Source of the DNA: an uncultured Gammaproteobacteria bacterium
Lineage (GTDB): Bacteria > Patescibacteriota > Microgenomatia > Levybacterales > UBA12049
Assembly: GCA_964507055.1 (NCBI GenBank)
Contig: CAZDOJ010000001.1
Location: 1,170,050 to 1,234,049, forward strand
Length of the DNA: 64,000 nucleotides
Direction of reading: 5' to 3'
The notes under the pieces were generated by a model. It saw only the letters and a list, made by a program, of their open reading frames with translations, had not been told where the DNA came from and ran no database searches. Position 1 is the first letter of the stretch, and each line of letters begins with the position of its first letter. The position numbers were made by a program, and so were the translations under genes. Shown here one piece after another: positions 7,621 through 54,600 of the stretch.

Positions 7621-7621
7621 A

Positions 7622-12382: not shown

Positions 12383-12434
12383 TCCCTCGAAACTAGACAG
12401 AAAATGGTTATTGTGATAGAGTCAAAATCGGTCT

Positions 12435-33782: not shown

Positions 33783-33824
33783 GGCGTTTGCTATAATATC
33801 TAAGTCAGCAACGAATCGTTGTTT

Positions 33825-35351: not shown

Positions 35352-35921
35352 TTATTTCTCAAACATAACAGGGATAACAAGTGGGCCAAGTTCTCCATCA
35401 TTAAACTCTGTATTGGTTCGTTCAATGACTAATTTGCCTGCAGAGGTTGTTGCTTCTGCTTTTGTGAATACGACGGCACCTGTAAATGGCACGAAACTGT
35501 CAGTCTTTGTGCTTTCAAGTGCTTTAAATGGCTTTAGAAAAAGAATTTTACCTTTATCATCTTCTAATCGCACCATTAACTGATCGGCATAGTACCATCC
35601 TCCCACCGCTTCTCCCGTGACTCGAAACGGACTTGTAACAAGTGTATTTGGTTTTGGTTCAGTCGTTTTTATAACGTCTTTAAGTAGTACACCATTGTAA
35701 ACTTCTACAAATACTTGTTTACCTTTCGTGTAACACTCCCGTGGTTTTGAATTGACTACAAGGTTGCCCGCTTCGGCACATTCTTCAAATGTTTTTATTT
35801 CTGTTGCAGCTTTCGGTTTGAGATTACCAAGTAGATTTGGAAAGAAAAAGAAGACGCCTACGGCAGCGAGGACGAGTGTGACGACAAGGGCAATAATTGC
35901 GTATTTCATGGCAGTATACAA
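35352..35921 (-). CDS. Gmad2 immunoglobulin-like domain protein, membrane-anchored
   Basis: N-terminal TM helix, then a beta-rich domain ...TSPFRVTGEAVGGWYYADQLMVRLEDDKGKIL... resembling Gmad2/GerMN-type Ig-like domains. Confidence 0.5.
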   Translation of the reverse strand: MYTAMKYAIIALVVTLVLAAVGVFFFFPNLLGNLKPKAATEIKTFEECAEAGNLVVNSKPRECYTKGKQVFVEVYNGVLLKDVIKTTEPKPNTLVTSPFRVTGEAVGGWYYADQLMVRLEDDKGKILFLKPFKALESTKTDSFVPFTGAVVFTKAEATTSAGKLVIERTNTEFNDGELGPLVIPVMFEK

Positions 35922-35965
35922 TTATTATAATACAGAATCCAAAAAATCAATATAGGTGAAGTGGT

Positions 35966-36775: not shown

Positions 36776-36898
36776 TAAAGATAAAAAATTACGAGAAAAA
36801 GTTCGCGAGGGTAGGGAAGGATCAAAAAAGGATTTTATTGAGTTATTAAAGCGTGCTGTAAAGAGCTAGAAGGCATCTGAAATAATTAAGACGGTATA

Positions 36899-37375
36899 TT
36901 ATTCATCTTTTTGTTCATCATATTCAATCTTATAAAAGAACTTCCACATACTGATGCCTGTTTTCTTTTGTTCTTTTCCTTCTGTAGATAATAAATCTCC
37001 GTTATTCATTTCCATAAGCTCGTAAATACTTCGGTACATTCTCCACGCAGTTTTATAGGTAACTCCTAGTTCTCGTTGTAGCTGCTTAATAGTTATTTCG
37101 CCTCGGGTTTGTGTCATAAGAAAGCATGTATAAAACCATAAGCGAAGTGGAGTAGAGGATTTTTCAAAGATTGTCCCACTTAACGGGTATATATGGTTGC
37201 GACAATCCTTGCATGCGTAGGCGGTTCTATTTTTTATCTTGTAGTGTTTTGTAGTAGATTTACACAGTTCGCAATAGACGCCTTTCGGGTACTGTAGTTT
37301 TTTTATTTCCTCCAAACACATATCGTCATCTGGGAATCTTTGGAGGAAGTCGTGAAAAGAAAATTCTCCTTGCAT
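36899..37375 (-). mobile_element. IS1595-family transposase N-terminal fragment (Zn-ribbon + HTH only; DDE domain absent)
   Basis: MQGEFSFHDFLQRFPDDDMCLEEIKKLQYPKGVYCELCKSTTKHYKIKNRTAYACKDCRNHIYPLSGTIFEKSSTPLRLWFYTCFLMTQTRGEITIKQLQRELGVTYKTAWRMYRSI parallels the IS1595/ISXO2 transposase N-terminus. The ORF is 158 aa versus ~320 aa for intact enzymes. Confidence 0.65.
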
Positions 37376-37539
37376 AAAAACATATTAATGAACCTAATAG
37401 CGTGTTGTCAAGGGATAGGGGATAATATTGCCTATTGACGACTGGATGGGCAATTGTCTATGATGGATTTAATCTTAATAAACCATTAAACGAAATGAGT
37501 TTTTAAATTATAACTCCTTTCGCTATAGTGATATTAATT

Positions 37540-39855
37540 ATGAAACATAAACTTACTGCCACTCTCGATCATGTGATAACATTTCTACTCTTAGTAGTAG
37601 CTGGTATTACACCTCTTCTTTTCTTCAATCAAACAACTGAATTTTATGAAATGCCAAAACTTATTTTCCTAGTTGTCTCTGTTCTTGTTCTTATGGGTAT
37701 GTGGATCTTCTCTTGGATATTAAAAGGGAAGGTAATGATCACAAGAACTCCTCTTGATATTCCTTTATTAGTACTTCTCGTCGTTGTCGTTGCCTCAGCA
37801 TACTTCAGTGAATCACGATTCTCAGCAATTTACGGTAATTTCCCACGTGTTCACGGCTCTGCTGTGGCTTGGGTTACTTATATATTGTTGTACTTCGTGA
37901 CCGTTTCACACTTGCGTAACCTCACACAGATCAAGACCTTCATGTATACATTATATGGTAGTGGATTGGTCGTAGCTTTAATAAGTGTGCTCTCATACTT
38001 TGGATTATTCCTCCCATTGGATTTCGCAAAAGCGGTTAACTTTACTCCAACTGGTTCATCATTCTCAACAGTAGCATTCTTGCTTTTGCTCTTACCGTTC
38101 CCAGTATTATCTTTGATAAACCCTAACAAGTATCTTCCAACTGTTCCAGCTGTAGTCTTGGCATCAGTATTTGGTGTAACAATAGCACTCCTCGGGGGAG
38201 TAGCAACTTATATCGCAATGCTTTTGGTATTCGCACTTGCAGTCTTCGTTTCAAAACCTGCACAACTGCAAAAGACTGTAGCAATGTTCTTGATCCCTGT
38301 AGCGTTAACAGCTTTGACATTAGTACTGTCATACGTTCCACTGCCAGGCGGTATGAGTCAAATGCAGGCTAATTTCCCTAAAGAAATCCAACTTCCTTTC
38401 GCAACATCATGGAAAGTATCAGCATCAGCATTCCGAGATGCACCATTCATCGGAACAGGTCCTGCAACATATCTTTTCAACTTCACAAGTTACAAGCCAT
38501 TGGAATTCAACCAATTTGACTTCTGGAACTTCTCATTCGATACAGCGTACAATGAATTCTTGCAAGTACTTGGAACCTTGGGAATACTCGGACTCGTATC
38601 TCTCTTCCTCCTTTGCTTGATCGTTCTTAACTCAGCACGAAAGAATATGTCTCTCGACAATGCTGAAGCAACTCAAGAAGGTCATGATGGCTCAAGTGAA
38701 AGTGCACATGTATTACTTCCAGCATTAGCAATCAGTGGATTACTCAGTATCGTCTTACTCGCAATCCATGCAACAACTTTGGTCTCAATCGTTACAACTT
38801 TGTTCATCCTCGCAGCGTTCATGGTTTCACAGAAATCAGTAAGGGGTAGAGTAATGAAACTCTCAATGGGTATCAAAGCATCAACTTCAGAGAACAAGCA
38901 ATTCGATTTGTTCCCAGTACTCTTGTTCGTAGCTTTCTTAGTCGCAGCAGTTCCAGTCTTGGTTCAAACATTCAATACTGCAATGGCTGACTACTATCAC
39001 CGCCAAGCATTAACTCAAGCAAACCAAAATGGTACAAAGACATATGAGTTCTTGCAAAAAGCTGAATCAGCAAACCCATACATCGACCTTTACAGAGTTG
39101 ATATGGCACAAACTAACTTCGCTCTCGCAAATGCACTTGCAGCTCAAAAAGGCCCATCTGCACAGAACGAAAAAGGATCTTTGACAGACGCTGATAAGAA
39201 GACTATCCAAACACTTCTTTCACAATCAATCAACGAAAGTCGAGCAAGTGTAGCTTTGAGTCCACGATCATCACGAAACTGGGAAGTGCTTGCATCAATT
39301 TACCGAAACATCTCAGGGGTAGCACAGAATGCACTTGTATACTCACTTGATAGTTATGGCCGAGCAATCCAAAGAGATCCATTGAACCCAGCACTCAGAG
39401 TTAATGTAGGCGGTATCTATTACTCAATCAAGAACTATGATCTCGCTATTCGATTCTTCTCAGACGCAGCGAACTTGAAGCCAGACTATGCAAATGCATA
39501 CTTCAACTTAGCAATCGCTCTTCGAGATAAAGGCGACTTACAAAATGCGAAAGCAGTTGCAGAACAAGCAGTTAAGCTCTTATCAGAAAATAAAGAAACA
39601 CCTGACTACAAGACAGCATCAACTCTCTTGACTGAACTTAACAAAAAGATCGCTGACTCAGCAGATGAAACACCAACTCAGGCTTCATCATCAGCTCAGC
39701 AACAGCCAACAGCTCTTGAAAACGAAAACCTTGAAGATGTAAACGTAGACGGATTGGACAATGCACCATCAGTAACACCAGCACCAACTGTCCGACCAAA
39801 TCCAGCAGCTAACTTACCACAGGGCATCAACCCAACAGCTGCTCCAAGAAGATAA
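37540..39855 (+). CDS. O-antigen ligase-like (Wzy_C) polytopic membrane protein with C-terminal TPR repeats and a Pro/Thr-rich tail
   Basis: About 12 TM helices; TPR-like ...NAYFNLAIALRDKGDLQNAKAVAEQAVKL...; tail ...SVTPAPTVRPNPAANLPQGINPTAAPRR. The listed ORF start 37528 is GTG; ATG at 37540. Confidence 0.7.
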   Translation: MKHKLTATLDHVITFLLLVVAGITPLLFFNQTTEFYEMPKLIFLVVSVLVLMGMWIFSWILKGKVMITRTPLDIPLLVLLVVVVASAYFSESRFSAIYGNFPRVHGSAVAWVTYILLYFVTVSHLRNLTQIKTFMYTLYGSGLVVALISVLSYFGLFLPLDFAKAVNFTPTGSSFSTVAFLLLLLPFPVLSLINPNKYLPTVPAVVLASVFGVTIALLGGVATYIAMLLVFALAVFVSKPAQLQKTVAMFLIPVALTALTLVLSYVPLPGGMSQMQANFPKEIQLPFATSWKVSASAFRDAPFIGTGPATYLFNFTSYKPLEFNQFDFWNFSFDTAYNEFLQVLGTLGILGLVSLFLLCLIVLNSARKNMSLDNAEATQEGHDGSSESAHVLLPALAISGLLSIVLLAIHATTLVSIVTTLFILAAFMVSQKSVRGRVMKLSMGIKASTSENKQFDLFPVLLFVAFLVAAVPVLVQTFNTAMADYYHRQALTQANQNGTKTYEFLQKAESANPYIDLYRVDMAQTNFALANALAAQKGPSAQNEKGSLTDADKKTIQTLLSQSINESRASVALSPRSSRNWEVLASIYRNISGVAQNALVYSLDSYGRAIQRDPLNPALRVNVGGIYYSIKNYDLAIRFFSDAANLKPDYANAYFNLAIALRDKGDLQNAKAVAEQAVKLLSENKETPDYKTASTLLTELNKKIADSADETPTQASSSAQQQPTALENENLEDVNVDGLDNAPSVTPAPTVRPNPAANLPQGINPTAAPRR

Positions 39856-39959
39856 ACTTCACTACCAAGTGGAGTTTCTTCTTTTATAAGTCCCTTTTAG
39901 TATTTATTCCCTGAGCCGAGCCGAAGGGTACTAATCTTGTATTATGCCTTCGACGTTGC

Positions 39960-40601
39960 TCAGGCAAAAAGGGTTTCGTGGTCTCCGCGGATAATGAGTA
40001 CTTCTCCATCACGAAGTGTTTTGTGAGGTATACGACTATCAATCATAAACTGTACTGTCTTACCAATCTCTGCTGATTCAGGATGATTTGATTGATAATG
40101 AGGTACGATAGAGTAGGGTAAAACATCAAGTCCGTTCCAAATAATTTCTGTTTGATAACCTTCAGGAATTACATTTGGATCATCAACTATCTCAATGCCT
40201 CGAAGTGAAGGAGCAAGGACACAAACACCGGCACTGTAACCTCCGTAGACAAGTTTATCCTCTTCCAATAACTGTTTTATAATCTCATCAGCTCCACTGC
40301 ATTTAAAAGCCCTTCTGAGGACAAATGCGTTACCACCTCGTACCCAAATTAATTCATATTTTTCAAGTTCGACACGAAGTTCTTCTTTCTGCCCAAAATA
40401 CTTTTTAAGGTCAATCTCCGTTACATCCAATCCTAAAGCTGTGAGCTCTTCTTTATCTTTAATATTTCGTTCCTGAATCTCTTCTGGACTTCTGAAGTCG
40501 ACAGCATTGGCAATAAGAGCTACTTTTGTACCACCTTTAAGCAGTTTGAGAAGTTCATCGGAATGATTTCCTAAACGATATGATGAAATATAGAGTCGCA
40601 T
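39960..40601 (-). CDS. Peptidase S51 family (peptidase E-like) protein
   Basis: ...ELIWVRGGNAFVLRRAF...; ...LVYGGYSAGVCVLAPSL...; ...IVPHYQS... Start at internal Met 40601; the listed ORF's upstream 72 aa overlap the neighbouring gene and are not credible. Confidence 0.75.
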   Translation of the reverse strand: MRLYISSYRLGNHSDELLKLLKGGTKVALIANAVDFRSPEEIQERNIKDKEELTALGLDVTEIDLKKYFGQKEELRVELEKYELIWVRGGNAFVLRRAFKCSGADEIIKQLLEEDKLVYGGYSAGVCVLAPSLRGIEIVDDPNVIPEGYQTEIIWNGLDVLPYSIVPHYQSNHPESAEIGKTVQFMIDSRIPHKTLRDGEVLIIRGDHETLFA

Positions 40602-40623
40602 AGAAACAGTATACCAGGAGCAA

Positions 40624-43600
40624 TTATTGGAGAAGAGAGCCACCTTGAATGAGTGAGCCTCCTTGGATAAGCACGTCACTGATTGCTGCGGTATTAATCT
40701 GCGGGTACCTATCAATTTGGAGTACAAGGTCATTACTTCGTGCCACTCTGAAACAGAAAGTTTGTGGATTACGATCATATGTTGTGTTATCGATAAGCGA
40801 GAAATCCCACATACCAACTTGATCTCCTGTCATTGCCGAAACAGAATTAGTGAAGTTATTTGCCTCTTCGTAATCTTGGTTTACCTTGGTATATGGAGGA
40901 TATGTTGGATCAGATCCGTTGGCTGTCAAATTATCCCCATCCGCAGGTGTAGCATTATTGTTAAATGAGATGGCTGTACCACTTCCCGGTATGCCTACAT
41001 CAGTCCATGTGCTCGGTGTTCCTCCTGTCGGTGCGATGCAGGAACCTGTCCCCGGATCCACAAATTGCAATTTATATTGTCGTCCATTTATTGCAAGCGA
41101 ATCAGGATAGTAGAGGAGGAGACGAAGTCTGAATTGTTCATTGGCTGTCGTGAGTGTATATGGAGTATCTTGTACTTGAAGCGGGGTAACCACACTAACA
41201 GCATTATTATTTGCAAACCATCTATATGAAGTAAGTGTTTCCAAATTACGATCAAAACCAAACCCATACGGTTCTGTGCTGTCGTCAGCGGCTGCACAAA
41301 TTTCTGTATATGTAGCCGTTGCTACGGTTGTCCATGTTTGACCAACTCCATCCCACTGCGACGACCACAGATCACATGTTGCAGCATTATCATGGTAAAT
41401 AAGCATCATAGTATTGGTAAGAAGATCGCTGTAAAGCTGTACACCTTCGATAACATCTGGATTTGCGGTCTTCGTAATATTTGCTGTAGTCGTAAAACCT
41501 CCGCCACTCGTCCATGTAATGTAAGCGATATCGTCATCTGTTGCAGTATTAGGTACATATGTCCACATCGCTTTGCCAGTATTATTTTCGAAGGCTGTAT
41601 CAACTACATTATTCGTTGTGGCAGATGGACAGGAAGCTGTGGTCCCGTTCATTGTTGCAGCTGCTCCGGTCCATACACCAAATCTAATAAGACATGTCGT
41701 ACCTTCTTGTAAACCAAGAGAAATATTATTACTTGTTGAAACAGGGTCACCCGCAGCCATAACCCATTGTAAATCGTTGGTAAAACCTGATGCTACAGTT
41801 GATTCTGCTTGCCATGTACCACTGGTAAATTCTCTCATGACTAAGTTATTTCCAGTCGTACCCCAGAAAATCATAGGTGTGCCACTGCTTGTCTCCCAGG
41901 CAATATCAAAGGCTTGTTCATTACTTGTGGCTGTAACTGTTGAAGTTGATTCATCAAACTGATTTACAAATGAATTTGTAGCCCCATCCCAAATCATCGC
42001 TCCCACACGTGCATTGTTGGTGAGATATCCGACGAGAATCGAATCGGAATTCAATAGGGGTTCCAAACGCACCCATTTTTTATAAACATCAAATGCAGTC
42101 CCGGCCGTGGACATCGAGGCAAAAGTTGTACCTGCATCCCACACACCATTAACTCGTTTAAAGTAGCGGAGTTGATTTGAACTATAATTACTAACAACAA
42201 GCAATGCGTCTCCAGAAATATCCTCATAGGCAATATCAAACGGCCTTGTCACATCAGCACTTCCACTTCCTAAAGGTAAATTCTTATCAAGGGACCATGA
42301 TGAACCATTCCAAGTCAAAACCATCACAGGATCATTGGTCGTATTATCAATAAGTGCCACGATCTTTTCACCGGTTTTTGGACTACTTACTTCACGAAAC
42401 CATCGACTATCAGTAGGTGTTGCAGACATGTTTGTGGCTGTATTAAAGGCTGTACCTGTCCAAATACGCGAGAAGGTATTACTTCCGCCGTTATCCTCAT
42501 ATGTCAGAACACCGGAGGTAGAATTAAGTGCATCTGAGGCAATTTGCCATTGTCTAGCTTCTTTGAAATCGCCAACTGTGATTGGTCCAAGTAAATAGAA
42601 TTCAGGCGAAACTTGAGGGAAGAGGATTGTATACCGAAATTCTTGCGTTTTACCTTTCTTCAGATTCACATCCCATGTGATCTTTTTAAAATCACCGACT
42701 GTTTCTTCTTTACCTCCGTTACTAATTTTCTCTGTTTTAAAGTCCGAAGGCATGAATTCTTCAACCTTTCCACTGTAATCTTCTTGAGGGGTTACCGTGA
42801 ATAAAACAGTATACGAAGCACGTGGGTAAATACGGGTAGGGAAGCTCTTTCTGTCGATATCAAATTTTGGTGCGTCTTCGACTTTGAAATAATCTTCAAT
42901 CTGTCTTTTCTCTCCATCTACTTCAGCAACCATTTTCATTTGATAGATTCCTGGTCCACTGATAAGGTAAATTGACGTAAAATCAGCCTCATTTGTTACA
43001 GTAATTGGACCACATTTGCCACTGTCTAAGACATTGCCTTCATCAGTAGAATATTCTTTTACAGTGCCTTTGGGGTCGGTGACTGTTAGCCATACTTTTG
43101 CTGTATCTTCGCCTGTGGCACATTGTGTTTCTCCTCGGTCATTTAATACACCCATGCCGATTGTTGCTACATCGCCAGGCTTATAAATGGATTTATTGGT
43201 ATTTACCGCAAGAACACCCCATGTAAAGTCTTGGCTTATATCAACATTTCCTTCAAGTGTACGCATTTGAAGACTTAATACATATTTACCTGGTTTGAAA
43301 TTGGGCATGTCTTTTGGATGGACGATGAGCTTGTGTTTTTCATCATTCAGATCTACTTCTGTTTCGACAGAAGAGCCTTTATCGCGACCTTGATAGGTGA
43401 TATGTGCTGAAACAAGTTCTTTGAGGCCATCTTTGGAGCTTTGGGCAATCTTTTGGAATTTCGCATCAGTCACATCAAAGGCGAATTCTGGGAGCTTTGC
43501 TGCTGGAACATTAAAAGAATCTTTGGGTTCTGCAGTAAGTTGCATTTCAACTATTTCGCGATTTACAAGTGGAGGAGGAGAAGCGTTATCATTTCGATAC

Positions 43601-43671
43601 AACCAGAAAACAGCACCAACAATAAGAAGTACACAGCCTATCCAACCAATAATTTCAAGCGTCTTTTTCAT
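40624..43671 (-). CDS. Large (1,015 aa) membrane-anchored extracellular protein, beta-rich, Thr/Asn/Trp-rich (hypothetical)
   Basis: N-terminal signal-anchor IIGWIGCVLLIVGAVFWL, then ~980 aa with no recognisable catalytic motif. Many NxT/S sequons and conserved Trp spacing suggest repeated beta modules. C-terminus ...IQGGSLIQGGSLLQ. TGtTATAAT lies 17 nt upstream. Confidence 0.6.
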   Translation of the reverse strand: MKKTLEIIGWIGCVLLIVGAVFWLYRNDNASPPPLVNREIVEMQLTAEPKDSFNVPAAKLPEFAFDVTDAKFQKIAQSSKDGLKELVSAHITYQGRDKGSSVETEVDLNDEKHKLIVHPKDMPNFKPGKYVLSLQMRTLEGNVDISQDFTWGVLAVNTNKSIYKPGDVATIGMGVLNDRGETQCATGEDTAKVWLTVTDPKGTVKEYSTDEGNVLDSGKCGPITVTNEADFTSIYLISGPGIYQMKMVAEVDGEKRQIEDYFKVEDAPKFDIDRKSFPTRIYPRASYTVLFTVTPQEDYSGKVEEFMPSDFKTEKISNGGKEETVGDFKKITWDVNLKKGKTQEFRYTILFPQVSPEFYLLGPITVGDFKEARQWQIASDALNSTSGVLTYEDNGGSNTFSRIWTGTAFNTATNMSATPTDSRWFREVSSPKTGEKIVALIDNTTNDPVMVLTWNGSSWSLDKNLPLGSGSADVTRPFDIAYEDISGDALLVVSNYSSNQLRYFKRVNGVWDAGTTFASMSTAGTAFDVYKKWVRLEPLLNSDSILVGYLTNNARVGAMIWDGATNSFVNQFDESTSTVTATSNEQAFDIAWETSSGTPMIFWGTTGNNLVMREFTSGTWQAESTVASGFTNDLQWVMAAGDPVSTSNNISLGLQEGTTCLIRFGVWTGAAATMNGTTASCPSATTNNVVDTAFENNTGKAMWTYVPNTATDDDIAYITWTSGGGFTTTANITKTANPDVIEGVQLYSDLLTNTMMLIYHDNAATCDLWSSQWDGVGQTWTTVATATYTEICAAADDSTEPYGFGFDRNLETLTSYRWFANNNAVSVVTPLQVQDTPYTLTTANEQFRLRLLLYYPDSLAINGRQYKLQFVDPGTGSCIAPTGGTPSTWTDVGIPGSGTAISFNNNATPADGDNLTANGSDPTYPPYTKVNQDYEEANNFTNSVSAMTGDQVGMWDFSLIDNTTYDRNPQTFCFRVARSNDLVLQIDRYPQINTAAISDVLIQGGSLIQGGSLLQ

Positions 43672-43801
43672 GGGACAGAGGTAGTACTATTATAACAAAG
43701 CTATGTAAGATCTCGGCCTAGATTTAAATGAGAATTAGTACTATTTGATATAGATTGTGTGATTGAATTTAGATGGGAATATGAAATAATCAAATCAATT
43801 G

Positions 43802-46534
43802 ATGAAAAGGCTAGGCTTATCTTTTTTACTTCTTCCGTTTCTTTTTCTTTCTTTAACTCAATCAGCATTCGCTGCTACATATAATCTTTCTGGAATAGTT
43901 ACAAACGCTGGTGGGGCGGGTATATCTGGTGCGTCAGTTGAAGTATTGGAAGTAAATACTAATAATGTTGTTGCTAATACAACTACTTCTTCCTCTGGAA
44001 ACTATAACGTAAGTGTGGAAGATGGAATATATGATATTCGAATTACACCACCTTCCGGTAGCGGGTTTAATCCTTCATTGATAGTAGATTATAATATCTC
44101 AAATAACTCAACTTTGAATATCACCCTTGGAGGAACTTCAATTGTTGTAAGCGGTAAAGTTACTGATTATCAGAATAATGATCTTAAAAATTCAAATATC
44201 ACACTTAAAAATCTCACGAGTAATATATATTTTTATGGACAAACTGATATAAATGGAAATTATTCAGTGGCTGCTCCTACTGGAGATTATCAATTGCTAA
44301 TCGAAGGCTCTGCTCAGGGAAATGAGTCAGAGCATGTCCCTGAGAAATGGCAAGCCATTGCAGAGAATATTACGCTATCTCAAAATAAGGTAATTAATTA
44401 TTCTGTTCAGGTTAAAAAAGTCGAAGTGTATATCAAAAATCCTTCTAACGAACCCGTCGAAAGTGCATTGATCAACGGAGTATTTGCCAGGAATGATCAA
44501 TCAACATTAGGTGGTGCTTCAGCATTTACAACCAACGCATATGATATTGGACTTCATACTGATGCAGATGGAAAAGCTGTATTTTTTCTTTTTCCAACTG
44601 ACTCTAATAATGGGGGATATAACTTTGTTGTTACGCCACCATCAGGGAGTCCTTACACCATGGCTGTAGCAAACAATATAAGTGTCTCTGATGATAGAAC
44701 AGTGGATATTCAAGTATCACCACCAGTTACAGTTAATGGGACAATTAAGGATCATCTGGGAAATCCACTTAACAATACAGGTATTTCTCTACAAAATAAT
44801 GCAACAGGAACATACTTTAATGGACAGACAGATGGAAATGGAAATTATTCTATTGAAATCCCTACGGGCGGCTACAGATTAATGTTTGAAGGATCAGCTC
44901 AAGCAAATGGATCCTCGAATATTCCTGAAAAGTGGCAAACAATTGCCGAAAATATTACAATAACGCAGAATGCTACAATTGATTACTCTTTGCAGGTAAA
45001 AAGAGTGGAAGTAACCGTTGTGGATGCTTCTAATAATCCTGTTGAAAATGCACATATTAATGGTGTTTTTGCTAGAAATGATCAAATAACGATAGGTGGA
45101 GTGTCTGCCTTTACTACAAATGCATATGACGATGGACTTAACACGGATGCTGATGGTAAGGCAGTTTTTTGGCTTTTCCCGACAGATACGAATAATGGAG
45201 GTTATCGATTTGTAGTTACTCCGCCGGCAGGGAATCCTAACACTATTGCCGTTGCAGATAATATTGAAGTAACTACAGATAGAACTGTAGATATATCAGT
45301 TTCTCCGCCAGTTACGGTGAGTGGTACTATTACTGGTTATCAAAATGCTCCGCTTAAAAATACGAACCTATCATTCCGTAATAGTTTATTTTCTTCTGAT
45401 TTTTATGCTCAAACGAATGAGAATGGTGAATACACTGTAGATATACCAAAGGGTACATATCAGATCCTTATTGAGGGTTCCACACAAGGGAATGAAACAA
45501 ATATGGTTCCTCAATTTTGGCAGGTAGGGGTTAATGATTTAGCAATAACAGCAAATAAGACGGTTGACTATCAGTTGGCACTAAAGAAATTGGAATTGCA
45601 TGTCCAAAATTCAAGTGGTGTTTCACTTGCAAATGCAAAAGTTCAGTTTGATGGTTTCATAACGCAACAACTTGAAATTGCAAATACTCAAGCATTTGGA
45701 AGCTCATCTTATAGAGATGGAGTAGTAACAGACTCTTCAGGAAATGTTACCTTGTGGTTATTCCCAACAAATACACAAGATGGTTCATATAATATTGTTA
45801 TTTATCCTCCAGAGGAGAGTGACTATACCATGGGTATCTTGGATAACTTTGAAATTGAGTCAGATACTTCAAGAACAGTTGTACTTCAAAGTCCTCAGGT
45901 AGAAACAACCTTGCAATCAGTGGCGGACACTTATATAAAAGAAGGGACAAAAAATCAAAATGAAGGTGCATCTACTTTTATCAGGTTACAATCAGCAGGC
46001 AATAATCGGGGAATTGTTCGGTTTAGTCAATCTGAAATTGAGTCTGCAATTAATGGTTCTCAGAATTATACTGCAAAGCTTCGATTTACAATAACAGATA
46101 ATGGAAATAATTGGGGTACGAATGGTAGAACAGTCGGTGCTCATAGAATAATGTATGATTGGGTAGAAGGCAATGGCTTCAATGATGGTAATATTCCTGA
46201 GAGCAGGGGAACAGGAAACGGTACAACGTGGAATTGTGCTATCGATTCTAATATTGCAAATGCTATGGCCAATTGCAATGGTGCTTCAGCGTGGAATATG
46301 AATTCTGTAAACTCTGTCTTTTCTTCAACTGCTAGTGCTTCCACTATCATCACGAATAATCAAAGTGGCATTGTTGAATTTGATGTAACAGCAGATGTTC
46401 AATTTTTCTTAAATAACGTAAACCAGAATTATGGATGGTTGCTTAAGAAAGAAAATGAAGGACAGCCTGGTAAGGTACAGTTTGGCTCAAAAGAGTCAGC
46501 TCAAGCTCCACAATTAATTATAGTTGCTCATTAG
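43802..46534 (+). CDS. Secreted repeat protein: signal peptide, 3 x ~195-aa CarboxypepD_reg-like repeat units, C-terminal DNRLRE-like domain (assignment tentative)
   Basis: Signal peptide MKRLGLSFLLLPFLFLSLTQSAFA. The repeat SGKVTDYQNNDLKNSNITL...YGQTDINGNYSV..PTGDYQLLIEGSAQGNE...EKWQ.IAENIT... recurs three times. C-terminus ...VADTYIKEGTKNQNEGASTFIRLQSAGNNRGIVRFSQSEI....SQNYTAKLRFTI... Confidence 0.6.
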   Translation: MKRLGLSFLLLPFLFLSLTQSAFAATYNLSGIVTNAGGAGISGASVEVLEVNTNNVVANTTTSSSGNYNVSVEDGIYDIRITPPSGSGFNPSLIVDYNISNNSTLNITLGGTSIVVSGKVTDYQNNDLKNSNITLKNLTSNIYFYGQTDINGNYSVAAPTGDYQLLIEGSAQGNESEHVPEKWQAIAENITLSQNKVINYSVQVKKVEVYIKNPSNEPVESALINGVFARNDQSTLGGASAFTTNAYDIGLHTDADGKAVFFLFPTDSNNGGYNFVVTPPSGSPYTMAVANNISVSDDRTVDIQVSPPVTVNGTIKDHLGNPLNNTGISLQNNATGTYFNGQTDGNGNYSIEIPTGGYRLMFEGSAQANGSSNIPEKWQTIAENITITQNATIDYSLQVKRVEVTVVDASNNPVENAHINGVFARNDQITIGGVSAFTTNAYDDGLNTDADGKAVFWLFPTDTNNGGYRFVVTPPAGNPNTIAVADNIEVTTDRTVDISVSPPVTVSGTITGYQNAPLKNTNLSFRNSLFSSDFYAQTNENGEYTVDIPKGTYQILIEGSTQGNETNMVPQFWQVGVNDLAITANKTVDYQLALKKLELHVQNSSGVSLANAKVQFDGFITQQLEIANTQAFGSSSYRDGVVTDSSGNVTLWLFPTNTQDGSYNIVIYPPEESDYTMGILDNFEIESDTSRTVVLQSPQVETTLQSVADTYIKEGTKNQNEGASTFIRLQSAGNNRGIVRFSQSEIESAINGSQNYTAKLRFTITDNGNNWGTNGRTVGAHRIMYDWVEGNGFNDGNIPESRGTGNGTTWNCAIDSNIANAMANCNGASAWNMNSVNSVFSSTASASTIITNNQSGIVEFDVTADVQFFLNNVNQNYGWLLKKENEGQPGKVQFGSKESAQAPQLIIVAH
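44150..45900 (+). repeat. Intragenic tandem repeats, 3 copies of ~590 bp, inside the secreted repeat protein gene
   Basis: Protein-level repeats start near aa 118, 306 and 506 with ~50-60% identity. Confidence 0.6.
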
Positions 46535-46598
46535 CTCTACGAGTAAATTATTAGTTCTCTAATTTCTTTTAATAAAATTATTGTATAATTATTTATGT

Positions 46599-47579
46599 AT
46601 GAAATGGTGGGCGTATGGATTACTTATTATAACAATTCCTCTTTCTGTTCTTTATCTCTATCAACTCTATGATCAGCAGACATATGTAGGGAATCCACTT
46701 ACTCGGACAACAAAATGTCCTTATACATATATCAATCAACAACGGTGTGAGCCAGATACTGCTCCCAAAAAGAGAGAATATGTTGAATTACGAAATGACC
46801 TTATGGACTTAATTGAAGGTCAGAAGAATGAAGGTCGACTCACAGATGCTGCTGTCTATTTCCGTGATCTACAAAATGGACCGGTTCTTGGTATAAATTC
46901 TCAGGATTTTTTCATACCAGCAAGTTTATTGAAGCTTCCTTTGATGGTAACATACCTTAAGAAGGCAGAATCAGATCCTGACCTTCTACAAAAAAAGATT
47001 ACAATAACAAGTGATATGCAATCACTCGACCAAAATGTCGTCCCTCGTGATGGTGCTCAAGTTGGTAAAACCTATACTCGTGAAGAACTTCTTAACTTAC
47101 TTATTTCGCAATCAGATAACATTTCATGGAAAGCATTACTCACAGATCTACGTGCTAATTATTCTGAGGAAGATTTTGTCGGAACATTGAGTGATCTTGG
47201 TATCGTTGACCCTCGAAAGCAAGATGATCAGCAATATATTACGACACAAAATTATGCTTCTGTATATCGAATTCTTTACAACTCTTCCTACCTTAATATG
47301 GAAATGTCTGATAAAGCATTGGAGATTTTGTCCAAATCAGAATTTAAAGATGGAATTGTTGCTGGTGTCCCTGCCAATGTCCAAATAGCTCATAAGTTTG
47401 GTGAGCAAAAAAATGGTGAGGAGCAGCAACTTCATGATTGTGGTATTGTTTATTATCCTCAAAATCCATATATTATTTGTGTTATGACTAAGGGAGCAGA
47501 TATCTCAGACCTAGAATCAGTTATCCAAAAGGTTTCGAAAGACGTCTACACTGAAGTAGAAGTAAGGAATGCGGACTAA
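46599..47579 (+). CDS. Class A beta-lactamase-related serine hydrolase (PF13354-like), membrane-anchored, paralog 1
   Basis: TM anchor; SxxK FIPASLLKLP; SDN loop SQSDNISWKAL; KTG-equivalent HKFGEQ; C-terminal ...LHDCGIVYYPQNPYIICVMTKG... ATG 46599 is 9 nt after TGTATAAT; the listed ORF start 46581 is TTG. Confidence 0.7.
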   Translation: MKWWAYGLLIITIPLSVLYLYQLYDQQTYVGNPLTRTTKCPYTYINQQRCEPDTAPKKREYVELRNDLMDLIEGQKNEGRLTDAAVYFRDLQNGPVLGINSQDFFIPASLLKLPLMVTYLKKAESDPDLLQKKITITSDMQSLDQNVVPRDGAQVGKTYTREELLNLLISQSDNISWKALLTDLRANYSEEDFVGTLSDLGIVDPRKQDDQQYITTQNYASVYRILYNSSYLNMEMSDKALEILSKSEFKDGIVAGVPANVQIAHKFGEQKNGEEQQLHDCGIVYYPQNPYIICVMTKGADISDLESVIQKVSKDVYTEVEVRNAD

Positions 47580-47583
47580 GCTT

Positions 47584-48564
47584 ATGAAAATGTTCTCATT
47601 TATTATCTTAGCTCTGATTATTGGATTTGTAGGTGGGTATTTTATAAATAAATTATCTTCACAAAGTCTACCTATTCAAAGAGAAGACTGTGAATCTAAA
47701 TATGAGTTTATTAATAGTAGGATTGGTTGCCAACAGAATATTATAGATAAAAGAGAGTATACAGAATTTACTTCGGATTTGGAAACTTATATAGCTCAAG
47801 AAAAGGATAAAGGACATGTTTTCCACGTATCCGTTTACTTTCGTGATCTTATAGCTGGGCCAACATTTGGTATTAATTCAGGCGAAAAATTTGTACCTGC
47901 AAGTCTTTTGAAACTACCAATGATTATGACATATCTAAGTCTGTCTGAACAAACACCTGATATTCTAACTCAGAAAATAGTTTATAACAATATAAGATTA
48001 AATGCTGAACAATCGACAAGTAACATTCCTCAACTAGAAAAAAATAAGGAATATTCTATAGATGATTTGATTTCTAGAACAATTATATATTCTGACAATA
48101 AGTCCGAAGCTCTATTACGAAATTATCTGTCGACTACATATCCTAAAGATAATTTGTTAATTCAAACAATGACGGATCTTGGCTTAGTCGATCCAAGAGA
48201 TCCAATTGAAAATACTCTTACAGTCAAAGCATATGGAACTTTGTTCAGGCAATTATATAACAGTAGTTATCTTTCTCCAGCGATGTCTGAGAAGGCTTTA
48301 AAATTATTGGCGAAAAGTAAGTTCAAAAATGGAATATCTGGTGGGTTACCGAAAGATATAAAAGCAGCACACAAATTTGGTGAACGTGAGGAAGTAAATC
48401 AAAATGAAAAACAGCTTCATGATTGTGGAATTGTCTACTATCCTAATAATCCATACCTTCTTTGTGTAATGACACGTGGTGATGATATGCAAGAGCTCGA
48501 ATCTGTAATCAAAACGATATCAGAAAAAGTATATAAAGAAGTTGACTCCAGAAGAATACAATAA
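47584..48564 (+). CDS. Class A beta-lactamase-related serine hydrolase, membrane-anchored, paralog 2 (tandem duplicate)
   Basis: Same motifs (FVPASLLKLP, YSDNKSEALL, HKFGERE, LHDCGIVYYPNNPYLLCVMTRG). About 45% identity to the upstream paralog. Start could be 47569 (11-nt overlap), 47584 or 47590. Confidence 0.7.
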   Translation: MKMFSFIILALIIGFVGGYFINKLSSQSLPIQREDCESKYEFINSRIGCQQNIIDKREYTEFTSDLETYIAQEKDKGHVFHVSVYFRDLIAGPTFGINSGEKFVPASLLKLPMIMTYLSLSEQTPDILTQKIVYNNIRLNAEQSTSNIPQLEKNKEYSIDDLISRTIIYSDNKSEALLRNYLSTTYPKDNLLIQTMTDLGLVDPRDPIENTLTVKAYGTLFRQLYNSSYLSPAMSEKALKLLAKSKFKNGISGGLPKDIKAAHKFGEREEVNQNEKQLHDCGIVYYPNNPYLLCVMTRGDDMQELESVIKTISEKVYKEVDSRRIQ

Positions 48565-48682
48565 TTTCTGTACTTTGTGTTGCAAGTACCAGAGCTTTTT
48601 CGGTTAATCAGTACTCACCAATTTTCTTTTATTCTTGAACCGTAAAGAACCAAGCTCTTTACGAATGAAAGTCGTAGTGATT

Positions 48683-51600
48683 TTATTCTAATGGTGTTGC
48701 TGCGGATAATTCTTGTGGTTTTTCTGTACCGATCTGCATAATCATTTCAGTTGTTGAGAATGCTACTCCAACTGGAACCTCTTTGACCGCATCAACTGGT
48801 GCTACATCTGTTAGGGCTCCTGCAACTCCTAAGAAGTATTGCTTACCAGCTTCTAAGTTATTCAATACATTTGCTTTCCCACCGATGATGATGGTAACTT
48901 TCTCACCAGCCAATGCATCACCAGCAGCGATACCCACTACTGTTGTCTTTGCTTCATCTGTCGCATCTGCGATCATGACTTCTTCTGTATCTGAGATGTA
49001 AAGTGCATCTCCCTTTGTGATGTCTTCACCAGCTGTTGCTGATATAGTGATCGCTCCAGCGAGATCGATATTGCCGCCAACTTTGATGTTTTCTTTGGTT
49101 TCAACATTCTTTGCGACGATATTGCCTTTGGTAATCATTGTTCCGTTCTTGTCGATAACCATTGCTCCGTTGAAGATGTCGAGTAAGTTAGCAAGTGGTG
49201 ACTTCTGCAAGAACAAGATACCATCAGTTGGTTCTTCACCATTTTCGATTGGTGTACCGAAGACACTGATTTCATTTTCTGTGACAGAGAGTGTGCCGCC
49301 GACATTGATTCTGTCATCAACTGTGAGGACGCCAGCAACATTCGTATCTTCAAGTGTTGTCTTACCAGTTACCATTACATCACCTGAGATTGTTGTGTCA
49401 CCGAGGTATGATTTTCCAAATGACTTGAATGTATCCTGGATTGTTGCAGTGTATGCAGTGAATTCACCACTAACAGTTGCAGTTGAGAAGAATCCATGAT
49501 CAGTAGGGGATGCAGAATCCGATGCAATCAAGAGATCAGGTGATGTGAGATCTTCAGCTGATGGAGTAGGTTCTGCACTTTCACTTGCAGTTGGCGTAGC
49601 AGATGGTGAACCGACGCCACTTGTTGGAGTAGGGGTCGCTGATACATTGAGACTTGCGATGAGGTCATCAATTCTCTGACTCAAACTTGCAAGATCAGCT
49701 GAATTTGAAGCATTGTTGATTGCTTCAAGTTGTGCATTTAAGTTAGCGAGAACTGCATCTGTTGAAGCAACTCTGTCTCCAAGTGTTGCAGCATCGCTTG
49801 CTGCTTTTTCTGCGAGATCTTGTGCTGCTGCAAGTGCTGCTGCCTTTGCTGCTTCTTGTGACTCAAGGTTAGTGAGCCGTGTATCAAGTTGATTTGTCTT
49901 CTCTTCAAGACTGATTGCACTTGCTTGGAGTGATCCGATCGCAGTTGTCTTATTTGTGAGACTGTTGTTAACTGCGAGGAATGCATCAGCCAATGAACCG
50001 TTAACAACCTGACCGTCGATTTGCATATTTGATGGGAGGACAACTTCACCTGTTGTGATTTGTGTATCTTCATCAGTAAGGATAGCCAATTGGTTACTTG
50101 GATCAGCAAAGGTGACGTTAACAAATGTCATGACCTTGCCAACACCTGTGCCAGTGAAGTCTTCAAGTGCTTTACCGATAACTTGTCCTGGCTTGGTTGC
50201 TTTCATCGCGATACCAGCAACTGATGAAGAAGTGAGGTAATCGCCCTTTTTAATCTGTCCATTTTCTGTACTCACCTTGACTGGGACACGTCCAGCGAGA
50301 GCAACTGGAACTGCCTTGCCACCACTGATCATTTGTTCATTTTGTGATAGTCTAAAGCCTGGTTTTTCGCTGTAAACACCAATTATTGTAGTATCATATG
50401 TACCCTCTGATTTCTTGACGTTTTCAGCAACATCTTTGTCGATAGAGAGGATGTCACCAGCTTGCAGTGAATTGTCTTGTGTACCATAGTCTTCAGCCAA
50501 ATCATAGTTGCCGCCATTTGTTGTAAGTGTTCCGGACAATGTCGCGTTTCCAGTACTGTCGATAGAGAAGAGTTCTTGATTCGCAGCATTCTTCCACATG
50601 AATTTATTTGCATCCATACCTGTGTAGTCAGCAGCTAATTTACTAACCACATTACCTGTAATTCCTTCGATTGTTCCTGAGAGCAAGTCGAGGAGAGGAG
50701 TCCGAATTGTACCTGATGTTGTTAATGTTCCATTACCATCAATTGTTAATTCACTATTGTTACCGAATGCAGCTGCACTTGCAGTTAGATCTCCAAGGAT
50801 ATCGAAGTTCGCGTTGTGAGTCCAATCAGACAATCCATCATATGCTGCTTCCCCTGCATTTGGATTAGCATATCCAACATTCGCAAATGCCATAATCTTA
50901 CCCACAGACGGGTTCCAATTATTTGGATTAGAATGGTATTCCGCTAATTCTCCTGCATGGATTGAAGTTCTTTCGTTTTCTTCAAATAGAACATTTTCAG
51001 AAACTCGTACAGATCCATCATAATCTTCTAGAGCTTTACCGATAACTCGACCCCCTTTAGTTGCTTTCATAGCAACACCAGGAATTGAAGAACTGGTAAG
51101 GTAATCACCAATCTGAATAGGACCATTTTCTGTCGAGACTTTAAGCGGTACACGTCCTGCCAATCCTACCGGTTGTCTATTTGGAGATTTTACATTGTAA
51201 CCAATGATACCGTCAGCAATTGGGTTTGTTGAAACGATACCAATCATGTTGTCATCGTAAGTTCCATTAGATGCTGAAACCATGTAGTTTCCACCAGTTG
51301 ATGAGACGATGTCACCAGGTTCTACTGTACCATCAGTGTCATAGAATTCAGCTAAGTCAGCTTGGCCAGAAGTAGAACAGTCTCCAATTACAGCTTCGTT
51401 AAGTGCAACTCCGTTACCTGTACCGCCACCAGTTTGACATAGACGCTGTGTTTTAGCTCCTGATGCTGCATCAATTCTTACTTGTCCCTCAAAGTCATGT
51501 GTGCCAGTTCCGGTGACTTCAAGGTTTTCAGCAATTTCAATAACAGTATCAGTAGGGGAACTTATAACAGGTCTTGTCCCATCAAGATCAAAAGCAAGAT

Positions 51601-54600
51601 CAGTATTATCAGTTCCACCAGCACCTTGGAATTCAATACTACCGTTGGTGTTGTTATCAATTGTTTCACCATTCTGAAGTACAATATCGTTTGTAATATC
51701 TGTTGTTGCAATGTTAATACCATTGGTTATTGATCCTGCGAACCCGCCTGATACACCCAAGATTCTGATTGCACTTGTAACAGCTGCCGACTGGTTCTCA
51801 GAGTTTACGAGACAGAGGAGACATTCAACACCATCTGCATTTGTTGTACCAGTTGCAGCATTGACGATTTCAAATCCTCGAAGATTTGAATCACCATCAT
51901 TTTGTGTGAGTACCAATCGTGAACCATACAATGTGTCACTTGAAGAACCACCCTGTGCAGTGTAATCGAGTGAAAGACCGATATTGTTACCAGTAGATGA
52001 ATCAACATCAAGATCAAAGACACCAGTTGAAAGTGAATTGAGTGTACTGTCATTTGATGCAGCATCGATGAAGATTCTTTGTCCTGCTGCTTGGGTAAAT
52101 GTTGTTCCACCAGCTTCAGTTAGTGTTAAGAATGAAGTACCATTTCTGTTAACGATGAAGTCTCCAGTAGCTCCACTGACACCAAGGTTAACATTGATGT
52201 TGGAAGCACTTGATGGTTGGAGTGTGATATTACCAGTCCCACTACCAACGATTGTTGTACCAATTTCAGACTTCAACCAGAGATCACCATTGGATAGGGC
52301 AGAGAGTGATGATTGAGATCCACCGCCAGTTGATCCGAAGAGTATCTGACCATTTGTTGTGCCATTCAATCCAATTGTCAGTATGGATGAAGTAGCTGAT
52401 GCATCTGCAAATGAGAAGAGGGTATTTGTCCCGTCTGTTAATCCGAGTGTTCCACCATTTGCGAATGAGATCAATGGGTTACTGAAATTAAAGTTGATGT
52501 TACCAGTTGATTGAACTTGGAATAAGTCACCATTTCCAACAGTCAATGGAGCAGCTGGTGTCGCATCTCCGAATCCTACGTTTCCTTGGAAGTATGCAGT
52601 GCCATTTGAGTTCAACTTAACGCCGTATGAAGTATTAAGTGTTGGAACTGCTGCACCAGTCAATGCTGTACCAGTATCAATGATTGAGTTGGTTGTTGTT
52701 GTTAAGTATCCAGTTTGGTTATTTGATGATGTTCCTCGATATACTCGGTATGATGTCGCACCTGCAACTGCTGTCCAGTTGATTGTAACTCTCTGGCCAA
52801 GAGTAACTGCTTGTGCATTTTCAGGACTTGTAGTTGTTTCACCACCAGCTGCATCAAGTGCTGTAACTTTGTAGTAATAGGTGCCCGTTGCGAGTGTTCC
52901 ACCACCAGCTGCAGTACCCATAGATAATGCTCCAGGAGCTGACATGTTAAGACCCATGTTATTCCCAGCTCCAAGAACGAATTTCTCTTGTGGAGTTGCT
53001 GTACCAAATCCTACATTTCCACCAGCAACGATCAAGCCGTAGTTCGTAGCACTTGCTCCACTTGCATCGAAGTATCCTGCGATGTTTGTCGCACTATTTG
53101 TTGTTGTATTAACGATCGATCGGACACCATATGATGTGTGGTTAGCATTTACATTGGTTCCAGATCGTGCGATATCAAGCATGTATGTTGTACCACTTGC
53201 TCCACCATTGGTTGCTGAATTTGTGATAGCAACTGCTGGAGTAGAAACATTTGTTGTACTGATTTGAAGAACATCACTTGCTGTTGCATTGGAGATAACA
53301 CCAGTTGAGAAGTTCTTGTTGAAGTAACCGAATTGGACCGTACCAGAGTTAGCTGTTGATGTGAATCCACCTGCACAAGCCAAGTTACCATTACTGTTGG
53401 TAACTGTACAACCTGTTGATGCTGAAGTTCCAGCGATGTTAACATCTCCAGTTTGTGTATTACTTTGGAGGTTAAGTGCTCCTGAACCATTTGCATTTAC
53501 ACTGACTGCTGCGTTTGTTGTGGTAGCAGCGATCACTGGTGCTGATCCGGAAAGATTAATTGTATTTGTACCCATTGTGAGGACGCCACTACCAAATGTT
53601 ACTGGTCGGTTCGTTGTGGTATTGATTCCAAGTGTTGCTGATCCACCAGTTGCATCGATGATTGGAGCAGTACCAGTTAGGTTGATTGCGTTGGATGCGA
53701 GTGCTGTTGTCGCACCTGATACTGTCAAACCACCAGCTACTGTTGTCGTACTTCCTGATGCACCGATTGCGAGTGATGAAGCACCGCCACCGATATTCAA
53801 AGTTGATGTCTGAACTGTGTTAAACAAGTTAACAGTTGATCCTGATGTTGCTGAGATATCGCCTCCGTTAACGATCAAATCACCAGTCATTGTTGTCGCA
53901 TTTGTTCCGAGGAATGAATATGTTGGGTTCGTTGAGCCGTTACCAAATGAGATATTTTCTGAGCTGTTTGTGGTGTTGATGTTAATGTAATTATTTGCAC
54001 CTTCTTGAACATCAAGAGCATCAGTATTGTTATCAACTAAGTTTGCAGTAATATCACTTCCTGCACCATTTGCTGTAAGTGAAACTGTTGTTCCGGAAAG
54101 AGCAATTGCATCGCCGCCATCACCGATGTTTGCTGCACCATTTGCAGTGAGTGTACCAGCAACTGTTAATCCATTATTAACTGTTGTTGTTCCAGTAGCA
54201 GCTCCGAGTGAAACAGTTGTTGCAGCACCACCGATGTTCAATGTTGTTGCGACTGTGTTGAAGACATTTGCAGTTGATTTCGCAGCGATCAATGTTGATT
54301 GCGTAGAACCATCAATTGTCAAACCATTTGATGCTGTAACTGCACCGGTCAATGTAGAGATGCCATCAACTGTTAATGTACCATTTGTTGAGATGTTTCC
54401 AGTGTTTGCGATTGTAGCACCAGTTGATCCGTAACCGCCGCCGACATTTACTGTATCGAATCCTGCGGTTGCATTTGTTGCAGCGATTGATGTTGCGTTA
54501 GGGAAGTTAATTGTTGTTCCTCGGATGTTGCCTGTTGCATTGGTTGCACCCAAAGTGTATGTCGTTGCAGCTCCACCAATATTGAGTGTTGTTGCTCCAG

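Follow-up and report, generated by a model that had tools for sequence, protein, structure and literature searches.

The ultra-small bacteria of the Candidate Phyla Radiation (CPR), or Patescibacteria, are believed to spend their lives attached to other cells, and giant genes to which no function has been assigned are a familiar feature of their genomes. The stretch of DNA analysed here, 64,000 nucleotides (nt) long and referred to as the window, comes from a Levyibacteria-like member of this group and contains one such giant gene. Open reading frame (ORF) listing and family scans confirm that five consecutive genes fill positions 39960-48564, next to the 3' end of the giant gene, and these encode a peptidase of family S51, an anchored protein of 1,015 amino acids (aa), a secreted protein of 911 aa and two paralogues with the class A beta-lactamase fold, BlaA and BlaB.

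The closest described counterparts of these proteins belong to separate systems. The giant protein is best compared with gp12, the 854-aa pre-neck appendage protein of phage phi29 (PDB 3gqh and 3suc), which has an intramolecular-chaperone (IMC) autocleavage domain. Flagella and secretion systems use dedicated wall hydrolases (FlgJ, VirB1, EtgA), the genes for which lie beside, and often in an operon with, those of the wall-crossing structure. The nearest solved relative of BlaA is PBP-A (Tll2115, Thermosynechococcus elongatus; PDB 2j7v/2j9o), a low-molecular-weight enzyme with measured DD-carboxypeptidase and DD-endopeptidase activity (PMC11189452). In the CPR themselves, more than 1,600 'class A beta-lactamases' have been counted as resistome (PMC9145738).

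The locus is read here as a mosaic of accessory genes, encoding wall-remodelling and binding proteins, around one giant gene for a secreted tailspike-like fibre, a reading that is given a probability of about 0.55. It is a loose, variable surface-gene neighbourhood and not a fixed five-gene machine. Except for the 1,015-aa protein, which represents an unannotated family, the parts belong to known families or are variants of them. What appears to be new is a Levyibacteria-wide trio, consisting of a Wzy_C/TPR protein, a stalked binding protein and the giant fibre, and a CPR-wide tendency of PBP-A-like enzymes with a K-F-G motif to adjoin IMC-bearing giant genes. No description of the trio or of the pairing was found in the searchable literature, and nothing relevant came up there for CPR giant proteins combined with O-antigen ligase or with IMC domains.

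The giant gene and its phi29 gp12-like modules

The giant gene is convergent with blaB and its stop codon (48683) is separated from that of blaB (48564) by the 118 bp given in an earlier reading of the window made from the letters alone (the sequence-only reading). No stop codon is found upstream of 63844 and the repeat continues to the window edge, so that the protein is longer than 5,104 aa; its orthologues have 16,528 aa (locus L083) and 16,046 aa (L006). The protein is rich in Thr (17%), Ala (13%), Gly (13%), Asn (11%) and Ser (9%), and consists of long beta-helix-like repeats, two IMC modules, a coiled coil, a Ser/Thr/Pro-rich linker and a C-terminal domain resembling cement proteins (sub-threshold match to PF09956). 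Neither half of the protein gave a Pfam match above threshold, and the leads came from isolated modules only.

The part common to the giant protein and the proteins encoded next to BlaA/BlaB relatives is a module of ~130 aa that starts with D-L-A-E. The profile of this family (A3) matches the C-terminal fragment of phi29 gp12 (3gqh) with an E-value of 1.9e-4, and D-L-A-E aligns to D-F-A-E of gp12 such that its D falls on residue 1 of the fragment, which we take to be the new N-terminus produced by gp12 autocleavage. PF11962 (Peptidase_G2) is present in some homologues of the module and is matched by 9 of the 31 aligned family members. The AlphaFold2 model of the module has a predicted local distance difference test score (pLDDT) of 89; its top Foldseek match is 3suc (TMq 0.61), with 3gqh in fourth place, and the remaining matches are phage cement or decoration proteins. 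The DLAE modules of the giant protein are homologous, in sequence and in fold, to the IMC domain of phi29 gp12. A beta-helix-like region precedes the module in the giant protein.

The two proteins differ in other respects. Unlike gp12, the giant protein is of cellular origin, exported by Sec and 5,000 to 16,500 aa in size, and it has two tandem modules, followed by ~470 residues that comprise the coiled coil, the linker and the cement-like domain. Complete IMC-bearing relatives (L135, 1936-9249; L140, 10969-18906) begin with Sec signal peptides. The sequence of the giant protein fits best with a Sec-exported, tailspike-like fibre in which the C-terminal modules would aid trimer assembly; trimerisation is a prediction, and by analogy with gp12 cleavage of the fibre at DLAE is possible. 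Behind their signal peptides the two complete relatives share the motif I(N/Q)FQGK(L/V)VN…G.Y.F.F..YD, which may mark a conserved N-terminal domain of CPR fibres.

PBP-A-like enzymes beside giant genes

BlaA and BlaB match Beta-lactamase2 (PF13354; hence Bla2) with 119 and 122 bits and have one N-terminal transmembrane (TM) segment each, as expected of the two membrane-anchored class A-fold paralogues of the sequence-only reading. They are 41% identical to each other and their genes overlap by 11 nt; the gene caller places the start of blaA at 46599, which gives a protein of 326 aa. In a PDB search PBP-A was the solved protein closest to BlaA (E 7e-11 over residues 59-325), and BlaA has two marks of a PBP-A-type DD-peptidase, namely this closest structure and the lack of a Glu166. 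Scores against the NCBIfam class A model (bla_class_A, cutoff 200 bits) are 71.3 bits for BlaA and 69.8 bits for BlaB.

In an alignment of 26 family members the SxxK motif (SLLK, within PASLLK) and SDN, both characteristic of class A enzymes, are invariant; the invariant residues of the alignment include S112, K115, S175, D176, N177, K269 and G271. K-F-G stands in the place of K-T-G, the Phe (F270) being conserved in at least 90% of the rows, and the Lys234-Thr/Ser-Gly signature is therefore lacking. The position of L158 in PBP-A (E158 in the 2j9o variant), which corresponds to Glu166 of class A enzymes, is taken by an Arg in BlaA (in VDPR), and this column is variable in the family. The motif QLHDCGIVYYP and two pairs of Cys residues are also conserved. 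The family is large (3,349 matches), and all members with a source name are from the CPR.

BlaA and BlaB are thus predicted to be membrane-anchored, outward-facing, PBP-A-like serine enzymes of a CPR-wide subfamily and not true beta-lactamases, because SxxK and SDN are retained, K-F-G replaces K-T-G and there is no equivalent of Glu166. They share with PBP-A the class A fold, SxxK, SDN, the absence of Glu166 and a single catalytic domain of ~270 aa outside the membrane. Unlike PBP-A, they possess K-F-G, QLHDCGIVYYP, the two Cys pairs and an N-terminal TM anchor, and belong to a CPR family, recurrently found beside giant genes, whose activity is predicted, whereas that of the cyanobacterial enzyme has been measured.

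Context look-ups of distant Bla2 relatives found giant genes adjoining all three (L083, L084 and L085); in L085 the giant gene encodes more than 6,091 aa and overlaps the start of Bla2. When metagenomes were scanned with the Bla2 family alignment, 80 loci were obtained, and adjacency was counted in the 32 that are at least 10 kb long. An ORF of at least 1,500 aa lies directly adjacent to Bla2 in nine of these (28%), compared with 10 of 384 other genes in the same loci (2.6%), an enrichment of ~11-fold (Fisher odds ratio 14.6, p = 1.6e-6). The control is conservative, since the loci are themselves enriched in giant genes (15 of 32 contain an ORF of at least 1,500 aa anywhere). An IMC module is found within 5 kb of Bla2 in 13 of 48 loci. 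In six cases the giant gene precedes Bla2 on the same strand at a distance of -20 to 76 nt, and the adjacency recurs in relatives that are only 37-48% identical to the BlaB of the window. In a rough neighbour-joining tree, constructed without support values, BlaA and BlaB fall in a clade in which 9 of the 11 members are IMC-associated. Across the CPR, the Bla2 subfamily is strongly enriched directly beside giant or IMC-bearing genes.

On one unrelated CPR contig (L101) a distant Wzy_C/TPR relative (10647-12569; 28% identity over 774 aa) adjoins a pair of giant and Bla2 genes, which hints that the trio containing Wzy_C/TPR recurs beyond Levyibacteria.

The surface-gene neighbourhood and its interpretation

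The surroundings were compared in 20 loci, namely the window and 19 loci collected through relatives of the 1,015-aa protein, in which all ORFs were compared with the genes of the window and clustered. The most constant neighbour is the Wzy_C/TPR gene, which lies outside the five genes treated in the sequence-only reading; it is found in 19 of the 20 loci (the exception has no flank on that side) with 56-71% identity. The giant gene is present in 16 loci, the other four being on contigs that end early. The trio of Wzy_C/TPR, 1,015-aa-type and giant genes occurs in two gene orders, and its outer flanks vary (GAPDH/PPDK, PheRS, Mg-chelatase/ATPase or SET/Gmad2), which suggests that its conservation reflects more than inherited order. 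Other genes occur in fewer loci: the Zn-ribbon gene in 10, the gene for a DNRLRE-tailed protein in seven, Bla2 genes in six and S51 in one, the window itself. A gene for a ~545-aa protein with no Pfam match is also found in six loci; it is not in the window, where S51 takes that position.

Membership of the Wzy_C/TPR protein in the Wzy_C superfamily is indicated by PF04932 (33.1 bits, cutoff 31.7), by TPR families and by ~12 TM-like windows; no PglL- or WaaL-specific model or structure was matched, and the assignment is to the superfamily of WaaL, Wzy and PglL as a whole. The coordinates of the ~545-aa protein are 13080-14720 in L004, 13023-14687 in L006 and 9085-10719 in L007, and it is also encoded in L008, L012 and L018.

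A sister genome, reached through a BlaB relative, has a locus (L083, on the 1.61-Mb chromosome OZ246394.1) that is colinear with the window at ~80% nucleotide identity. Its gene order is PAS kinase, aminotransferase, Gmad2, SET, Zn-ribbon, Wzy_C/TPR, S51, Bla2, Bla2 and the giant gene. By blastn, positions 33682-40617 of the window correspond to 1-6951 of L083 and positions 46579-47579 to 6998-7998. Between them the window has a clean 5,961-bp indel, located in the spacer between S51 and blaA and corresponding to L083 6952-6997, which holds the 1,015-aa and 911-aa genes; these diverge from a 127-bp spacer (43672-43798). Neither direct nor inverted repeats were found at the borders of the indel, and there is therefore no evidence for a transposon-like cassette. 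Protein identities between the two genomes are 96% for Wzy_C/TPR and Gmad2, 84% for the Zn-ribbon protein, 83% for the aminotransferase and BlaA, 69% for S51, 65% for SET, 58% for BlaB and 59-87%, depending on the segment, for the giant protein. By these identities, the genes nearest the 3' end of the giant gene evolve fast, and the uneven divergence (window 33800-57300) suggests recombination or diversifying selection there.

The 1,015-aa protein was modelled with AlphaFold2 from 38 orthologues (mean pLDDT 81). The model comprises an N-terminal TM helix, three Ig/MG-like domains (residues ~40-370), a beta-propeller (~385-800) and a C-terminal beta-sandwich, which agrees with the anchored, beta-rich protein described from the sequence. 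There are 57 full-length relatives (42-63% identity), all from metagenomes or Patescibacteria metagenome-assembled genomes, and the closest named records are from Candidatus Levyibacteriota. The N-terminal stalk domain is widespread in the CPR and is also found in DPANN archaea. In several related loci the anchored protein is ~820 aa long, is sometimes duplicated and shares only the first ~380 residues (TM and Ig-like stalk), so that the stalk is the conserved part and the head varies. The safe conclusion from the model is that of an anchored Ig-domain stalk with a putative binding head, formed by the beta-propeller and the beta-sandwich. The Photorhabdus PLL/PHL propeller lectins and the WD40-like/BamB-like propellers are only 6-13% identical to the propeller, which, unlike these, sits on a stalk made of three Ig/MG-like domains and anchored in the membrane, and is followed by a beta-sandwich.

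The sole family match of the 1,015-aa protein is to MG2, below threshold (21 bits, cutoff 32.8), and its family profile matched no PDB sequence at E-values up to 1. An identity as alpha-2-macroglobulin was rejected, as MG2 is sub-threshold and there is no thioester region; the MG matches found by Foldseek are to chains of Ig-like MG domains only, with TMq ~0.1. The C-terminal tail DVLIQGGSxIQGGTxLQ (40624-40680) is conserved across the 38 orthologues and is disordered, with low pLDDT in the model. This tail faintly resembles the (I/V)NGGD turns of the repeats of the giant protein.

The 911-aa protein is secreted, having a Sec-type signal peptide with a cleavable-looking site (…SLTQSAFA|ATY). 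Its gene contains three tandem repeats of 195 aa (585 nt). CarboxypepD_reg (119 bits) is found in four stretches, one N-terminal and one in each repeat, and not in the three that had been counted from the sequence; the signal peptide and the DNRLRE C-terminus of that description are borne out, the latter by NF033679 at residues 709-908 (48.3 bits, cutoff 34). The DNRLRE end is the only conserved part of the protein: in the equivalents from five loci (L006, L007, L016, L020 and L022) the C-terminal 206-275 aa alone are conserved (49-62%) and the N-terminal parts differ (PKD, CBM96). In L006 the DNRLRE-type tail is replaced by CBM96-annotated tails.

The S51 protein has Peptidase_S51 (PF03575) at 73.8 bits (cutoff 23.9), which upholds its assignment to this family. 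Among PDB entries it is closest to Lmo0363, DR_1070 and PepE, and both the nucleophile Ser and the His are aligned; in Lmo0363, GESAGA and PHY are the counterparts of its motifs GGYSAGV and PHY. The gene caller sets the start at 40601 (213 aa), and a 285-aa ORF from 40817 overlaps the upstream gene; neither version has a hydrophobic segment. Like dipeptidase E and the other two S51 peptidases, it is ~210 aa long, has the aligned catalytic Ser and His and is cytoplasmic; it differs from PepE in falling below the PepE equivalog cutoff (NF003642, 44.8 bits, cutoff 156), and nothing indicates that it is connected with the surface genes. The gap to the 1,015-aa gene is 22 nt, and the two genes are probably co-transcribed. 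On sequence and distribution, S51 looks like a cytoplasmic PepE-like peptidase that is a bystander and not a conserved member of the neighbourhood.

The sequence-only reading had proposed one functional module for envelope or host-surface interaction, made up of exported or anchored proteins with little recognisable enzymology. Its observations are largely right once corrected, and the single-module interpretation is partly supported: a surface neighbourhood tied to the giant gene stands, and a fixed set of five is split by synteny, since the 1,015-aa protein accompanies the giant gene and S51, Bla2 and the DNRLRE-tailed protein are variable. Export or anchoring holds for four proteins, with one N-terminal hydrophobic segment each, and fails for S51. 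Enzymology is recognisable in three of the five, in S51 by the aligned Ser and His and in both Bla2 proteins by intact SxxK, SDN and KxG. Neither of the two large proteins has a housekeeping homologue; the presence of clear ones would have counted against the proposal.

If the locus is a mosaic built around a fibre gene, the fibre would be exported by Sec, would form trimers beyond the membrane, assisted by its C-terminal IMC modules, and would possibly be cleaved just before D-L-A-E. The PBP-A-like enzymes would trim or open peptidoglycan cross-links locally, so that the very long fibre could cross or seat in the wall, while the propeller-headed anchored protein and the DNRLRE protein would be interchangeable binders of wall, fibre or host-surface ligands and the Wzy_C/TPR protein would supply a glycan ligation or polymerisation step. 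The proposed role of the enzymes is analogous to that of FlgJ, VirB1 and EtgA, an analogy drawn from gene position; unlike BlaA and BlaB, these are lytic transglycosylases or muramidases and serve multi-protein machines, not one fibre. A stronger version, in which the K-F-G enzymes are dedicated CPR-wide partners of IMC fibres that process the fibre or attach it covalently to peptidoglycan after IMC cleavage, a sortase-independent route of anchoring or maturation in which the propeller and DNRLRE proteins tune host binding, is considered unlikely.

Several results weigh against the reading as a mosaic around a fibre. All of its functional links are drawn from gene position. The two modules of the window are themselves below the PF11962 threshold in Pfam, and autocleavage of phi29 gp12 is reported to need ATP, which is absent outside the cell. 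The Thr of K-T-G normally contacts the substrate carboxylate and is removed in K-F-G, so that the substrate may not be the classical D-Ala-D-Ala stem. The propeller matches, which include the PLL/PHL lectins, are at fold level only. The remaining points speak against it, for the view that there is no functional coupling and that independent envelope or housekeeping genes adjoin the giant gene owing to common descent and the general clustering of surface genes, or both. S51 is cytoplasmic; the Bla2 family is large, and 17 of the 32 loci lack a giant gene within 10 kb of Bla2; conversely, 14 of the 20 Levyibacteria-like loci have a giant or 1,015-aa gene and no Bla2 nearby, and any coupling would thus be at most facultative or paralogue-specific. 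In L083 the 1,015-aa and 911-aa genes are missing while S51, the two Bla2 genes and the giant gene are retained, which makes this pair of large genes dispensable and exchangeable. PheRS genes are also syntenic, together with Wzy_C/TPR, in 8 of the 20 loci, so vertical inheritance contributes. Promoter and terminator sites in 39700-48800 are no more numerous than in shuffled sequence, and the transcription units are accordingly drawn from spacing. The absence of coupling is nevertheless doubtful, though a serious possibility, given the ~11-fold excess of Bla2 genes next to giant genes, its recurrence with operon-like spacing at 37-48% identity to BlaB, and the retention of the trio in two orders despite differing flanks.

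Three further explanations are less probable still. A glycosylation or glycan-display unit, in which Wzy_C/TPR would be a PglL-like O-oligosaccharyltransferase acting on the Thr/Ser/Asn-rich fibre, the propeller and DNRLRE proteins would bind glycans and Bla2 would be incidental, would account for the constancy of Wzy_C/TPR and its high identity in L083, for the composition of the giant protein, for the lectins among the propeller matches and for the CBM96-annotated tails in L006. It is quite improbable, as Wzy_C is barely above its cutoff and has no PglL/WaaL-specific match, the block has no glycosyltransferase or flippase genes, the Wzy_C/TPR gene is not the only ligase-like gene in the window and the likeness to lectins is one of fold. 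That BlaA and BlaB are genuine class A beta-lactamases, directed against beta-lactams and unrelated to the giant gene, is very unlikely. Their best Pfam and NCBIfam families are beta-lactamase families, the class A motifs SxxK and SDN are shared, and other CPR class-A-like proteins, with K-T-G, hydrolysed some beta-lactam in vitro (PMC9145738); however, BlaA and BlaB score far below the NCBIfam cutoff, have no Glu at the L158/E158 site, carry K-F-G and a membrane anchor, and are closest in structure to a DD-peptidase. Just as little credence is given to the view that the block is what is left of a decayed prophage or tailocin, the giant gene being a tail fibre and its neighbours phage cargo. 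The gp12-like modules, the cement-like domain and the match of the first domain of the 911-aa protein to a tail-fibre PHROG (E 5e-8) are what such a remnant would show, but the neighbours have no capsid, portal, terminase, integrase or other phage structural match, complete relatives of the giant protein carry Sec signal peptides, the chromosomal position beside Wzy_C/TPR is stable in 19 of 20 loci, and 5,000 to 16,500 aa is far above the sizes known for phage fibres. The prophage reading and a defence reading were rejected, there being no PHROG phage structural assignment and no PADLOC match for the locus.

Read as a mosaic around a fibre gene, the locus outlines CPR giant genes in three parts: a tailspike-like fibre, PBP-like wall enzymes and swappable surface binders. 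In current annotation the K-F-G PBP-like enzymes beside fibres wrongly appear as class A beta-lactamases. Provided that the pairing is functional, part of the CPR 'resistome' would be re-labelled as cell-surface biogenesis enzymes, and proteins would be identified for studying how CPR cells build attachment structures; if it is not, the locus is an ordinary, fast-evolving surface-gene neighbourhood.

Other features of the window

Table 1 Features of the 64,000-nt window, with the evidence for each.
Feature	Coordinates	Strand	Evidence
158-aa protein, Zn_ribbon_IS1595 only, no DDE domain	36899..37375	-	Pfam, 34.5 bits; phrog_25593, E 4e-20
Wzy_C (O-antigen-ligase-like) polytopic membrane protein with C-terminal TPR	37528..39855	+	Pfam, TM scan
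Peptidase S51 (PepE-like), 213 aa, predicted cytoplasmic	39960..40601	-	Pfam, PDB matches, hydrophobicity scan
Two-gene indel, 5,961 bp (1,015-aa and 911-aa genes)	40618..46578		blastn colinearity, junction alignment
1,015-aa type-II anchored surface protein	40624..43671	-	TM scan, AlphaFold2 model
911-aa secreted protein, CarboxypepD_reg and DNRLRE	43799..46534	+	Pfam, NCBIfam, signal-peptide scan
BlaA, TM-anchored, PBP-A-like, class A beta-lactamase fold	46581..47579	+	PF13354, 118.9 bits
BlaB, second TM-anchored PBP-A-like paralogue	47569..48564	+	PF13354, 122.2 bits
Giant gene, predicted secreted fibre protein, >5,104 aa, continuing beyond the window end	48683..64000	-	ORF listing, composition, module hidden Markov model (HMM)
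IMC (Peptidase_G2-like) module 2, DLAE at residue 4448	50108..50503	-	Family profile, AlphaFold2 and Foldseek
IMC (Peptidase_G2-like) module 1, DLAE at residue 4163	50981..51358	-	Module HMM, E 4.6e-41; phrog_6427, E 1.3e-10

A lipobox scan, which the sequence-only reading had suggested together with signal-peptide prediction, was negative for all five proteins. The statement that no known secretion machinery is encoded also holds for the ten largest remaining ORFs of the window, which are housekeeping genes (LeuRS, primase, PGK, P-type ATPase), a second Wzy_C protein and a DUF4012 protein. PADLOC gave no match in the five genes and their neighbours, and the tail-fibre match of the CarboxypepD_reg-like first domain of the 911-aa protein is the only structural match to PHROGs there. 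An Rfam scan of the window found one tRNA and nothing else.

The Zn-ribbon protein (158 aa) adjoins Wzy_C/TPR in 10 of the 20 loci, with 53-63% identity, and may have been domesticated as a regulator. At 35966-36775 (-) the window encodes a SET-domain (lysine methyltransferase-like) protein, which is also present in L019 and L083. The second Wzy_C paralogue (468 aa, no TPR) is at 2399-3805 (+), and the DUF4012 protein (895 aa) at 4933-7620 (+). The contig of the window is also present in the Logan assemblies of SRR14271332, SRR14271336 and SRR14271340. Many contigs that, by gene content and closest relatives, are clearly from Patescibacteria (L008-L024 and others) are titled 'uncultured Gammaproteobacteria bacterium'.

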